A DNA stretch of 64,000 nucleotides, taken from NCBI RefSeq assembly GCF_003991155.1, contig NZ_CP031293.1. One strand, given 5' to 3'. Position numbers and translations under genes: made by a program. Source of the DNA: Escherichia coli (GTDB lineage: Bacteria > Pseudomonadota > Gammaproteobacteria > Enterobacterales > Enterobacteriaceae). Positions within the stretch are counted from its first letter, which is position 1. Every line of letters begins with the position of its first letter. Shown here in pieces: positions 22,479-26,057 of this stretch. Under the pieces are notes generated by a model, which saw only the letters and a program-made list of their open reading frames with translations, had not been told where the DNA came from and made no database searches.

Positions 22479-23018
22479 TCATATTGCCCCCAGCATGGTG
22501 GTGACCATCGCCATCAGTGGACCAGCCAGATCTGGGTCCACACGAAACATCGACACAATACCTTCACTAATTTCCTTCAGTTTCTGGTGGCGTGGTGCGT
22601 TGAGAATGACAGCCTGTTTTGCCTCACTGAGTTCCTTTTCCATTTCAGCCAACCTAGCCATAAAGCTATCCTGCTCAACCAGGTAACCGCGATATTCCAG
22701 CGGTAGTACCGCCAGAATTGCCGGGGTCAGTTCACGCACGTTATTTCGGTATTTTTCAGAATCGAATTTGTTATCGAGGAAGCGGAACAGCTTCTGGCGT
22801 GCACGGCTGACATCATCAGGGAAATCGATGGTGCCGCCGCCCAGCTCCCGATACTCATTCACAATGAGTGCGGCAACAACATCCTGATTATCTGCAGCCG
22901 ACCAGGCGCGAACGGCATCACGGATTTTTTCGTGGCCTGGCGCCTGTTTTGTTTGAGAACGATTTATCACCGCAGTCGGGGTAAATCCGCTAGTCTGTTG
23001 GTATGTAATTGGTTGCAT
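22479..23018 (-). CDS. Protein in the cII position (179 aa; possibly CII/CP76-family regulator)
   Basis: ATG with AAGGA RBS; lies between cro and O; far longer than lambda cII and not matching it; family assignment is from memory only. Confidence 0.4.
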   Translation of the reverse strand: MQPITYQQTSGFTPTAVINRSQTKQAPGHEKIRDAVRAWSAADNQDVVAALIVNEYRELGGGTIDFPDDVSRARQKLFRFLDNKFDSEKYRNNVRELTPAILAVLPLEYRGYLVEQDSFMARLAEMEKELSEAKQAVILNAPRHQKLKEISEGIVSMFRVDPDLAGPLMAMVTTMLGAI

Positions 23019-23099
23019 AATTGATTCCTTTAGTTTGAATTGACTGTTAATCAGTCTGTTAAGTTGATTGCTTATTGTTAAAGAGCGTGAAATGGAAAT

Positions 23100-23330
23100 T
23101 TAAGCTGCGTTCTTTTCGGTGTGTGGAAACAACTTCGGAAGATCCGGGCGAATCTGGTATGCCTTCACAACTCCACCAGTAGCCGTAACAATGCTGCCGA
23201 CATGTTCAGGGGATACCTTTGCTTTGTTGTGAAGCCACTTATAGACGGCCTGCTGTGAAACTTCGCAGGCATCGCCCAGTTTCTTTTGTGAACCAACTAT
23301 ATTGATCGCTGTTTTGATTGCTGGGTTCAT
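23100..23330 (-). CDS. cro: Cro-like HTH repressor
   Basis: 76 aa, HTH-like segment (QKKLGDACEVSQQAVYKWL); divergent from cI across operator region; GGAGG RBS. Confidence 0.7.
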   Translation of the reverse strand: MNPAIKTAINIVGSQKKLGDACEVSQQAVYKWLHNKAKVSPEHVGSIVTATGGVVKAYQIRPDLPKLFPHTEKNAA

Positions 23331-23362
23331 AACAACCTCCGTGGTTAATCTGAACCAAGATT

Positions 23363-23425
23363 AAAACTATGGTTGTTTTTAGTCAACAACCATTTTCGTT
23401 TGATGGAATAAAACCTTGGTTGTAC
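23363..23425. promoter_or_regulatory. oR: oR operator/promoter region (pRM/pR) with three related sites
   Basis: 17-mer AAAACTATGGTTGTTTT (23363-23379), related sites near 23383-23399 and 23409-23425 (AAAACCTTGGTTGTACA); same motif recurs at oL. Confidence 0.6.
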
Positions 23426-23434
23426 ATTTGGTCT

Positions 23435-24124
23435 ATGAAAACAACACTCTCAGAAAGACTTAAAGAAGCCAGATCAGCGCGAGGCCTTACACAAAAGGCA
23501 CTTGGGGATTTGGTTGGGGTTAGCCAGGCTGCTATTCAGAAAATCGAAACAGGGAAAGCTAACCAAACAACTAAAATCGTGGAGATCGCGAACGCTTTGG
23601 GTGTGCGCGCAGAATGGTTATCTTCTGGCATTGGAAATATGTCAGACAGTACAGTGCAACCAATACAATCAACTCTCAGCCATTCCAAATACTTCAAGAT
23701 TGACGTTCTTGATATAGAAGTCAGTGCTGGGCCGGGAGTCATCAACCGTGAGTTTGTAGAAGTTCTACGCTCGGTTGAGTACTCGTTTGACGATGCTCGT
23801 CACATGTTCGATGGTAGGAAAGCGGAAAATATCCGCATCATTAACGTGCGTGGTGACAGCATGTCAGGAACGATCGAACCAGGTGATCTGCTGTTCGTTG
23901 ATATCACTGTTAAATCTTTCGACGGTGATGGTATCTATGCGTTTCTGTACGACGACACAGCCCATGTAAAGCGCCTGCAAATGATGAAGGATAAGCTGCT
24001 GGTCATCTCTGATAACAAAAGCTACTCACCGTGGGACCCGATCGAGAAAGACGAGATGAACCGGGTGTTCATCTTCGGTAAGGTTATTGGGAGCATGCCG
24101 CAGACGTACAGGAAACACGGATAA
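23435..24124 (+). CDS. cI: CI repressor (HTH + LexA-like S24 peptidase domain)
   Basis: Track ORF 23369..24124; likely start MKTTLSERLKEARSARGLTQKALG at 23435 with no SD (leaderless, as for lambda cI from pRM); C-terminal serine-protease-type region (GDSM...K). Confidence 0.88.
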   Translation: MKTTLSERLKEARSARGLTQKALGDLVGVSQAAIQKIETGKANQTTKIVEIANALGVRAEWLSSGIGNMSDSTVQPIQSTLSHSKYFKIDVLDIEVSAGPGVINREFVEVLRSVEYSFDDARHMFDGRKAENIRIINVRGDSMSGTIEPGDLLFVDITVKSFDGDGIYAFLYDDTAHVKRLQMMKDKLLVISDNKSYSPWDPIEKDEMNRVFIFGKVIGSMPQTYRKHG

Positions 24125-24204
24125 TCAGCTGCGTGCTGATGAGGCTTTAGGGTAATGCGCTGAAAGAATTCTTTATAAAAATAACATTACGGGAAAGGCA
24201 AAAA

Positions 24205-24474
24205 ATGAGTGATAAAAAACTTATTAAAAAATCAAATAACTGTGTAGATGCATATGCTGATGCATTTGGATATTCATCTTTTGGGGAAGATGACGATCGC
24301 TTAGGCTCCATATCTTTCTTTCAGCATGTTACAGAATGGGACGCTGATGGTAGTAATGACACTGAAAGCGTAAAGTACAACATTGCAACAATTCGCATGA
24401 CGGAAGATTTAATGCTTAAACTCGCTGACTTTATTCGCGATCAGCATGATAGAGCTAAAACCAATAAGTCATAA
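24205..24474 (+). CDS. Hypothetical acidic protein (89 aa) in the rexA position downstream of cI
   Basis: AT-rich ORF, same strand as cI, 80 nt after cI stop. Confidence 0.55.
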   Translation: MSDKKLIKKSNNCVDAYADAFGYSSFGEDDDRLGSISFFQHVTEWDADGSNDTESVKYNIATIRMTEDLMLKLADFIRDQHDRAKTNKS

Positions 24475-24482
24475 TATTAACA

Positions 24483-24923
24483 ATGAAATACGGTTATTAC
24501 GAAGCTCCAAACCTAACTGAAAAGCTTGAACAAGCGGCAAGATCATCATCTTTGCACACCGCAGCATTTTCTCAATCAGCTGGTATGTCTGGCGATAATG
24601 TACCTATGCTACAATCAAGTGGTAGCGGTGGCTCTGGGAGTAATAATGTGCTTGAATCAAAAGTTGCAAAGCTTGAGTCTGATGTGTCCTACATCCGACG
24701 TGACGTTGATGAGCTTAAGACAGATGTCAAATCTATCGACAGAAACATGATCGCTGTTCTGGAGCGACTCGATTCAATAAAAGAGTCACTAGCCAAAAAA
24801 CCATCCATCGATGCTATCGATAAAAAGATTTCAGACGCAAAGCTTGCGGTATTGCTTGGTGTTCCAGCAATCATCGCTGCAGGAACAGGGCTTTATAAGC
24901 TATCAATGTACTTTTTTCTTTAG
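24483..24923 (+). CDS. Hypothetical coiled-coil protein with C-terminal transmembrane anchor (146 aa)
   Basis: Gly/Ser-rich linker, heptad-like region (LESKVAKLESDVSYIRRDVDELKTDVKSIDRNMIAVLERLDSIKESL), hydrophobic C-terminus LAVLLGVPAIIAAGTGLYKLSMYFFL. Confidence 0.55.
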   Translation: MKYGYYEAPNLTEKLEQAARSSSLHTAAFSQSAGMSGDNVPMLQSSGSGGSGSNNVLESKVAKLESDVSYIRRDVDELKTDVKSIDRNMIAVLERLDSIKESLAKKPSIDAIDKKISDAKLAVLLGVPAIIAAGTGLYKLSMYFFL

Positions 24924-25005
24924 TGCTTAAGAAACTGCTCGCCACCTCGCATTAGGCAAAGCGATTTTTCATTCCCTATTACCCTTTCTTAACCAATCAT
25001 CTAAA

Positions 25006-25032
25006 CCCGGCCCCGTGCCGGGTTTTCTTTTG
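25006..25032 (+). terminator. Rho-independent terminator ending the cI-downstream operon
   Basis: Stem CCCGGC (25006-25011) / GCCGGG (25017-25022), then TTTTCTTTTG. Confidence 0.65.
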
Positions 25033-25144
25033 CCCTCCCCTCATCACACACACCGTTAAAAAAACCACCATAACCTCGCTTCAGTTATCGCTATGCGATT
25101 CAAGTCACAAAATAAATCCATCCTAAATACAACCAGTTATATCT

Positions 25145-25197
25145 AAAACAACCAATAAAACAACTTTTGTTGTTGACGATAAAACAACTATAGTTTT
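25145..25197. promoter_or_regulatory. oL: oL operator/promoter region (pL)
   Basis: AAAACAACTATAGTTTT (25181-25197) differs at one position from the reverse complement of the oR 17-mer; related sites at 25145-25161 and 25157-25174; TTGACG -35-like hexamer at 25172-25177. Confidence 0.55.
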
Positions 25198-25395
25198 AAA
25201 TAAGTTCATCGCAACAACACAACGATACGGCAACCACCTGATTCACCGTTGCGATGACCGCTTAGATCCGCAGCTTGAATTTCAGCAGGCTCCGGGGAGT
25301 GCGAGGGGTGAAGCGGACGCGTGAACGTCGGTGTGACCAGCTGAAATCAACTCAACACTTCATACCTCAGTCGCTTCAACGAGGCGGCTTAGTTA

Positions 25396-25685
25396 TGACA
25401 ACCGGCGGCCATCCACCGCCTGAATACGCGCAGAAGTCTCTATATGTTCAGCAGCCCAGCTTACGGGCAGGAGTTTTTATGGTTCATCAACATTACGGTA
25501 CGCAGACCGTTAATCGCGGTGCGGTCATGCCAGGAATGCTGGTCAAACACAAAGATGGTACCTGGACTGCATCGGCTAATTTACGCGGACGGCTTTATCT
25601 GCATCGCGGCGTCGAGCGCACTTATACCCGTGACTTGCTCGTGGAAATTTTTCTCGACGGACGCGGCAACGGCCTGAATCACTAA
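25396..25685 (+). CDS. Hypothetical early-left protein (N/kil/cIII position); function unknown
   Basis: Track ORF 25275..25685 starts at TTG; first ATG with GAGG RBS at 25396 ([20 protein letters not shown]...); no match to recalled lambda N, kil or cIII. Confidence 0.35.
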
Positions 25686-25760
25686 TCCCCTTTCCTGTTT
25701 TCCTAATCAGCCTGGCATTTCGCGGGCGATATTTTCACAGCCATTTTCAGGAGTTCAGCC

Positions 25761-26057
25761 ATGAACGCTTATTACATTCAGGATCGTCTTGAGGCTCAGA
25801 GCTGGGCACGTCACTACCAGCAGATCGCCCGTGAAGAGAAAGAGGCAGAACTGGCAGACGACATGGAAAAAGGCCTGCCCCAGCACCTGTTTGAATCGCT
25901 ATGCATCGATCATTTGCAACGCCACGGGGCCAGCAAAAAAGCCATTACCCGTGCGTTTGATGACGATGTTGAGTTTCAGGAGCGCATGGCAGAACACATC
26001 CGGTACATGGTTGAAACCATTGCTCACCACCAGGTTGATATTGATTCAGAGGTATAA
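25761..26057 (+). CDS. gam: Gam (RecBCD inhibitor), short form
   Basis: 98 aa, matches recalled lambda GamS ([21 protein letters not shown]...). Confidence 0.9.

Follow-up and report, generated by a model that had tools for sequence, protein, structure and literature searches.

YdaT assembles as a tetramer through a C-terminal helix that forms a four-helix bundle, and it carries a POU-like helix-turn-helix domain (PMC9986795). The tetramer binds an 18-bp inverted repeat, TTGATT-N6-AATCAA, located at the junction of ydaS and ydaT (PMC9986795). In the prophage CP-933P this YdaT-box lies at the end of ydaS (PMC9986795, PMC8630535), and YdaT activates the promoter PRE933P (PMC8630535). In Rac the box, ATGATT-CATGAA-AATCAA, spans the ydaT start codon, and YdaT was found to confer a 29-fold, box-dependent activation of leftward transcription together with an increase in racR expression (PMC11879457). 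The published models differ in where they place the promoter. For Rac, the activated promoter is PracR4, which lies ∼190 bp from the box and inside ydaS (PMC11879457), while in the CP-933P papers the mapped start coincides with the box or lies upstream of it (PMC8630535, PMC9986795). [quoted passage not shown]

Here, a prophage gene of the same family was analyzed in a 64,000-nt stretch of an Escherichia coli genome (contig NZ_CP031293.1), referred to as the window. The gene and its neighbors are listed below.

22479..23018, minus strand: the 179-aa gene in the cII slot; long-form YdaT family, very probably a phi80-type CII transcription factor
23100..23330, minus strand: cro-like gene, 76 aa, YdaS family, immediately upstream of the cII-slot gene
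23369..24124, plus strand: divergent CI-like repressor gene, HTH_3 and Peptidase_S24 (Pfam, RefSeq annotation and ORF translation)
21463..22482, minus strand: replication gene O, directly downstream of the cII-slot gene (PF04492, sequence and alignment)
22367 to ∼22475, plus strand: candidate antisense RNA resembling oop and phi80 M3, in the interval from the cII stop to the O start
23075..23087, minus strand: exact boxA, CGCTCTTTAACAA, nutR-like, in the cro-cII spacer; the only exact match in the window

The gene in the cII slot and its surroundings

The ORF list places the 179-aa ORF on the minus strand, from an ATG at 23018 to 22479 (the original prediction gave no strand), with a ribosome-binding site, AAGGA, 8 nt upstream of the ATG. 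It is a real gene and not a chance ORF, because it matches a Pfam family with an E value of 8.4e-30 and has 683 database homologues. That match, the only one in Pfam, is to PF06254 (YdaT_toxin; 103.5 bits against a cut-off of 21, residues 67-154). PHROG 163, a "CII-like transcriptional activator" family, matches residues 17-179 with an E value of 5.8e-67, no NCBIfam model matches the protein, and its only sequence matches in the PDB are 8bt1 (CP-933P YdaT) and 3c4r. Genes annotated as cII in the Escherichia phages 3W, Perceval and the PhiR series are 96-97% identical, and the counterpart in phage 4A7 carries the annotation "CII-like transcriptional activator". Identity to phi80 cII is 66% across 180 aa, the full length of the protein. 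Rac YdaT is 34% identical over 96 residues (E 4e-11), and R79 aligns with the Rac R57 in a column that is at least 90% conserved in an alignment of 38 sequences. The protein thus exceeds the Pfam threshold of the YdaT family and shares its fold layout, conserved arginine and gene order, and it is very probable that the gene encodes the prophage's CII-equivalent regulator of lysogeny establishment, of the phi80 type and within YdaT family PF06254. This identification draws on sequence, predicted fold, homology to phi80 CII and conserved gene position. Family and role are already known, and the protein is a catalogued phi80-type CII protein.

The original prediction had described a gene in the cII slot between cro and O, nearly twice the size of lambda cII and without a match to it. 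The gene map of the window confirms the slot, and the protein is 1.85 times as long as lambda CII (97 aa). No Pfam match to Phage_CII (PF05269) was obtained for the 179-aa protein, and a tblastn search of the whole window with lambda CII gave a best E value of 0.24 at an unrelated place. A typical cII gene elsewhere in the prophage, which had been named beforehand as counter-evidence, was found neither by this search of the window nor in the RefSeq prophage annotation. The remark that some prophages carry YdaT-type genes at this position also proved apt, the protein being a member of PF06254.

On the minus strand, the gene order is cro-like gene, 179-aa ORF, O (PF04492), P (PF06992) and ren. 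The cro-like protein matches PF15943 (YdaS; E 6.6e-17, 61.5 bits), with a weak Pfam match to P22_Cro, and belongs to PHROG 35, a transcriptional repressor family. The CI-like repressor gene would be the presumed target of CII-dependent establishment transcription. The order of repressor, cro, YdaT-family gene and replication genes is preserved in 16 of 16 related loci for which gene maps are available (phi80, CobraSix, mEp237, HK639, KO-TP1, PHB10, pAEv1818, Rac and metagenomic loci). According to the NZ_CP029747 annotation, which corresponds to window positions 700-44200, the gene resides within a complete lambda-like prophage at the argU/DLP12 site. The chromosomes of many E. coli strains contain the 3.5 kb from 20700 to 24200 with 100% identity, and the cII-slot stretch has matches in thousands of complete E. 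coli genomes.

Elsewhere in the prophage, the serine recombinase gene ybcK and the multidrug efflux gene emrE (18283-20452) are situated between ren and the nin genes, a placement like that in the K-12 DLP12 remnant, and an iss/bor-type lipoprotein gene and a nucleoid-associated protein gene are found near the lysis cassette. Downstream of two small ORFs on the pL side, ∼550 nt (24923-25479) contain no convincing ORF, and this stretch might be the place of the prophage's N-equivalent or of a put-like RNA. Searches by tblastn with lambda N and Kil queries returned no homologues; divergent analogues of these two, and of CII and CIII, may exist.

Several features of the intergenic regions resemble those of other lambdoid phages. 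The 81-nt region between cro and cII is largely accounted for by the boxA site, and since it carries an exact CGCTCTTTAACAA, the boxA consensus of lambdoid nut sites, the spacer is probably nutR. A 12-bp near-duplication 18 nt downstream of boxA gives rise to a hairpin, GACUG-AUUAA-CAGUC (23042-23056; stem 5 bp, loop 5 nt), which could be boxB. As a DNA palindrome (GACTG-TTAAT-CAGTC, 23042-23056) the same element was rejected as an operator, because the near-duplication occurs only in the window and in 1 of 80 close relatives; the TTGATT-like repeats of the spacer were likewise rejected, since the spacer is unrelated in other carriers of this cII allele. Between cro and cI there are palindromes built on AACAACC/GGTTGTT, one of the form ATGGTTGTT-N7-AACAACCAT at 23369-23393 and further arms at 23321-23337 and 23343-23359, which are probably the oR operators. 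Because the palindrome at 23369-23393 overlaps the annotated start of cI, the real start may be the Met at residue 23, near 23435.

At the other end of the gene, the RefSeq start of O (22482) overlaps the cII stop as ATGA. This start is probably ∼30 codons too far upstream, and one at 22392 is favored, where a lambda-like O N-terminus, MANTAEIF, begins with GGGAGGA before it. The 87 nt between the two contain the oop-like element. At 22367-22395 this candidate RNA has a promoter-like sequence, TTGAAT-17-(TG)CATAAT, whose upstream TG overlaps the start codon of O. Positions 22429-22463 form a predicted strong hairpin (fold z-score -2.86), after which comes a weak U-tract, and in alignments the region corresponds to the stretches of phi80 and HK639 that are annotated as M3 RNA. 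An Rfam scan of positions 21000-26000 at E≤1 gave only two matches, both at chance level and neither of them in 24923-25479.

An AlphaFold2 model built from the 38-sequence alignment (mean pLDDT 84.3) predicts that residues 1-25 are disordered and that the remainder of the protein is helical, and Foldseek matches it to both 8bt1 and 3c4r with a probability of 1.0. In the model, a POU-like helix-turn-helix domain (residues ∼29-113), with its predicted recognition helix at ∼70-82 (SRARQKLFRFLDN), is followed by a long C-terminal helix. The predicted helix 119-138 is the counterpart of the tetramerisation helix of YdaT, and by homology the 179-aa protein is probably tetrameric. Two further predicted helices, 143-159 and 162-178, close the protein with a conserved hydrophobic tail, GPLMAMVTTMLGAI. 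The 38-sequence alignment separates the family into a long form of ∼180 aa, found in phi80, the prophage studied here and many phages of Klebsiella, Enterobacter and Citrobacter, and a short form of ∼140 aa, found in Rac and CP-933P. Only the long form has a 27-residue N-terminal extension and the C-terminal tail EGIxSxFRxxPxxxGPLMxMVTSMLGxM, which is modelled as two additional helices. Speculatively, and with little weight, this hydrophobic tail may render the protein unstable, as the C-termini of lambda CII and 186 CII do; the last 24 residues of 186 CII confer FtsH/RseP-dependent instability (PMC7708051). The resemblance between the tail and that of 186 CII (P.M..V..TM.G.I) was not significant by shuffling (p 0.12-0.34), and tblastn with a cIII query found no cIII homologue in the window.

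A predicted operator and promoter within the gene

Two elements near the 5' end of the gene, both on the strand directed toward cI, are predicted to constitute an establishment operator and promoter.

22953..22970, plus strand: predicted operator, a YdaT-box-like inverted repeat, TTGAGA-ACGATT-TATCAC, antisense to codons 17-22
22991..22996, plus strand: predicted -10 hexamer, TAGTCT, of a cI-directed (pRE-like) promoter, 20 nt past the box

The predicted operator corresponds to gene positions +49 to +66. It is a poor match to the published box TTGATT-N6-AATCAA, agreeing at 8 of 12 positions with 4 of 6 pairs symmetric, and the -10 hexamer is weak. With a start ∼7 nt after the hexamer, near 23003, the center of the box would fall at about -41.5. 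This is the classical position for an activator that overlaps the -35 region.

The arrangement recurs in relatives of the gene. An inverted repeat of the form 6-N6-6 is present at the identical gene coordinate in all 18 long-type relatives, most of which match the published box better than the window does (9-10 of 12 positions, or perfect palindromes). On the antisense strand, TAnnnT follows exactly 20 nt after the box at 18 of 18 long-type loci, the hexamer being TAGTCT in the window, TATTGT in phi80, and TATTTT, TATTAT, TATCAT or TAACAT elsewhere. The composite motif [nTGAnn-N6-nnTCAn]-20 nt-[TAnnnT] is antisense and at a constant gene coordinate in 18/18 long-type loci, which are related, partly recombinant and hence not independent. 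Six of the 18 are relatives with 28-49% identity in which the half-sites (TGATT, TGAGA, TGAAA) and the encoded peptides differ, and here the two half-sites change symmetrically (GTGAGA…TCTCAC, ATGAAA…TTTCAT, CTGATG…AATCAG). Among the 12 diverse loci first examined, 11 contained a box-like 18-mer matching at 8 or more of 12 positions; the match was 10/12 in mEp237 and the Klebsiella phages and 9/12 in an Aeromonas phage, although the peptide encoded by the latter differs. The short-type genes are similar: Rac has TATGAT 20 nt after the footprinted box (E. coli K-12 NC_000913 1420620-1420700), a good -10 on the racR-directed strand, and a short-type Klebsiella phage has a 21-nt spacing from box to TATCAT. 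Of 19 loci, 16 have the strict pattern TGA-N10-TCA-N21-TAnnnT where cII begins, and it occurs only twice elsewhere in 128 kb of related loci, both times as the same palindromes read in reverse. In the 64-kb window it has a single match, at 22954-22996, where 0.35 would be expected. In the YdaT and CII literature consulted for the homologues, no mention of the operator-20 nt-TAnnnT arrangement was found.

Synonymous-site identity is also elevated at the 5' end of the gene, at 0.74-0.88 over codons 1-15 as compared to 0.51 for the whole gene. This conservation could also be due to selection on the N-terminal peptide or to recombination that shares 5' ends, and such sharing is visible among phi80, CobraSix, KO-TP1 and HK639.

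The window shows no enrichment of the canonical box, with 45 occurrences at three or fewer mismatches against 40.6 expected. A near-perfect Rac-type YdaT-box with one mismatch, ATGATTATGTAAAATCAA, is present at 16688-16705, between two small ORFs of the nin region. By a rough estimate ∼0.2 such sites would be expected by chance, and the site was rejected as an operator, being compatible with chance and having no TAnnnT at the family spacing. No second box-promoter cassette was found near int or Q in the window, so the pI and paQ branches of the lambda scheme are unsupported here.

The boundaries of the exchanged module were followed in 80 IMG/VR loci with 96-98% identical cII alleles, a set that was used for these boundaries and not for diversity. 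About half of the 80 carry a completely unrelated cro and spacer, and at least two unrelated cro alleles occur next to the cII-O module (96-98% identity). For one class of these mosaics, the similarity to the window sets in exactly at the cII ATG, which makes this junction a sharp boundary in the mosaic immunity region. Since exchange involves the cII-O module as a whole, a target site that it needs should lie within cII.

These observations suggest the following course of events. After infection, transcription from pR would yield Cro and then the CII-slot protein, which would bind TTGAGA-N6-TATCAC within its own codons 17-22. Bound at about -41.5, the protein would activate the weak promoter with -10 TAGTCT and a start near 23003, reading along the plus strand of the window (leftward on the phage map). 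The transcript would cross the nutR spacer and run antisense through cro into cI, and so would establish repression and lower Cro, as from lambda pRE. By analogy with its homologues, the CII-slot protein is most likely a helix-turn-helix activator of such a leftward, cI-directed establishment promoter. Taken across the family, the 27-residue disordered N-extension of the long proteins may essentially be the translated promoter-operator, and the YdaT-activated promoter of Rac may be the proximal one, with -10 TATGAT, and not the one ∼190 bp away. We consider the chances even that all three parts hold together, namely the family-wide antisense cassette at the 5' end, the N-extension as translated promoter-operator and the proximal Rac promoter. 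If true, this would explain how one cII-O module works with unrelated cro and cI alleles, and for researchers of phage switches it provides a precise, testable location for the establishment operator and promoter of phi80-type CII.

The protein could instead be a CII-like regulator for which the repeat and TAnnnT within the gene are not the promoter, activation coming, for example, from a reverse promoter inside cro, with the 5' conservation reflecting the peptide, translation signals or shared recombinant ends. The assignment of Rac activation to PracR4, ∼190 bp from the box, has this form (PMC11879457), and neither the Rac nor the CP-933P model contains a -41.5 arrangement (PMC11879457, PMC8630535, PMC9986795). 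The recombinational sharing of 5' ends and the weakness of the predicted -10 in the window point in the same direction, and inside cro a promoter-like sequence, TTCACA-17-AACAAT, lies on the plus strand at 23164-23192, ∼200 bp from the box. That sequence, however, is no better than chance (2 promoter-like sites against 1.8 expected) and sits in a cro allele that is absent from many carriers of the same cII allele. The 20-nt spacing to TAnnnT, in contrast, stays constant while half-sites and peptides change, and is the same beside the Rac box itself. Furthermore, the Rac reporter, as described, also contained the proximal region and hence does not discriminate between the proximal and distal promoters. 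The published Rac data could be re-read as a promoter adjoining the YdaT-box. While a promoter outside the gene deserves to be taken seriously, we regard it as unlikely.

A second possibility is that the protein is mainly a repressor or autoregulator, its binding within the gene blocking rightward pR transcription into cII, O and P, such that replication would be delayed and cI would not be activated. The candidate box does lie in the transcribed and translated part of its own operon, and in Rac the ydaS promoter is covered by bound YdaT as well (PMC11879457). In its title and abstract, the structural study presents YdaT as equivalent to a "CII repressor" (PMC9986795). Reporters for both homologues nevertheless show leftward activation (PMC8630535, PMC11879457), and in Rac the binding of the YdaT-box has little effect on ydaT expression (PMC11879457). 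A pure roadblock would not predict that TAnnnT is conserved at constant spacing from the box. Repression as the main function is improbable, and an activator of leftward transcription is preferred.

Toxin names and the CP76 family

The RefSeq product name of the protein is "toxin YdaT domain-containing protein", and Pfam calls PF06254 "Bacterial toxin ydaT" and PF15943 "Bacterial toxin YdaS". Read literally, the protein would be the toxin of a YdaS/YdaT toxin-antitoxin (TA) pair, neutralised by the YdaS-like protein encoded upstream, and the original prediction had also raised toxin-like genes of the YdaT type. Overexpression of Rac YdaT does lead to filamentation and death, but this toxicity is attributed to transcriptional activation of the host gene rcsA (PMC11879457), CP-933P YdaT is non-toxic (PMC8630535), and lambda CII is likewise toxic when overproduced (PMC5917428). 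The toxin names stem from a TA prediction algorithm, and a direct test, cited in PMC5917428 and PMC9986795, gave no TA behavior; the label has also been contested on grounds of genetic context (PMC5917428). The experiments on the Rac and CP-933P homologues thus contradict a toxin-like reading. In addition, the predicted fold is of the DNA-binding helix-turn-helix tetramer type, sequence and fold are unlike any known toxin, and the immunity region, in whose cII slot the gene sits, is otherwise ordinary. It is very improbable that the protein acts as a TA toxin, and the database name is misleading for what is most likely a lysogeny regulator.

The original prediction had also tentatively placed the protein in a CP76/CII-like family and had proposed profile and structure searches. 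The functional half of that placement stands, as the protein's family serves as the CII equivalent in phi80-, Rac- and CP-933P-like lambdoid phages, while the CP76 half is corrected: the searches assign the protein to the YdaT/phi80-CII family and not to CP76. Despite a similar size (169 versus 179 aa), a similar role, a shared layout of helix-turn-helix plus helical C-terminus, the 186 regulator 6vli as the first non-YdaT Foldseek match, and a borderline local alignment between the C-terminal halves of phi80 CII and 186 CII (p 0.053), membership of the phage 186 CII/CP76 family (PF06892) has a negligible probability and was rejected, because PF06892 detects the 186 CII control at 3.7e-48 but neither the 179-aa protein nor phi80 CII at E≤10, the hhalign probability against 186 CII is 0.65%, and the Foldseek match to 6vli has an E value of 0.28 and a TM score of 0.23.

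Comparison with 186, lambda, Rac and phi80

Phage 186 is P2-like, and its switch architecture differs from that of the prophage studied here. Its CII (PF06892), a helix-turn-helix activator of comparable length, is needed to establish lysogeny, and by annotation its binding site and the promoter pE both overlap with the first 28 nt of its own gene. It belongs to a different Pfam family and has no significant profile or fold match to the 179-aa protein.

In lambda, pRE and the CII site overlap the 5' end of the CII gene itself and are directed antisense through cro into cI, and CII binds a direct repeat, TTGC-N6-TTGC, that flanks the -35 region. Lambda CII (PF05269) occupies the same slot and follows the same inferred logic of a tetrameric helix-turn-helix activator (PMC9986795), but has no sequence similarity to the 179-aa protein. 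Counterparts of lambda cIII, pI and paQ were not found in the window.

The YdaT proteins of Rac, CP-933P (8bt1) and E. coli O6 (3c4r) are 28-34% identical to the 179-aa protein and ∼140 aa long, lacking the 27-residue N-terminal extension and the conserved two-helix C-terminal tail. In these three the box overlaps or precedes the start codon, whereas the candidate box of the window lies in codons 17-22.

Phi80 CII (JX871397, PHI80_49, 180 aa) is collinear with the 179-aa protein over its full length, including the N-terminal extension and the tail GPLMxMVTxMLG. It belongs to the same Pfam family and sits in the same slot, between cro and the O-like gene 15, with an oop/M3-type RNA region after the cII stop as in the window. 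The cro and cI partners of phi80 differ from those of the window, and so do the spacers between cro and cII, of 30 nt with a GC hairpin over the cro stop in phi80 and of 81 nt with boxA in the window. At the candidate operator, the half-sites are TTGAGC/TATCAT in phi80 and TTGAGA/TATCAC in the window.
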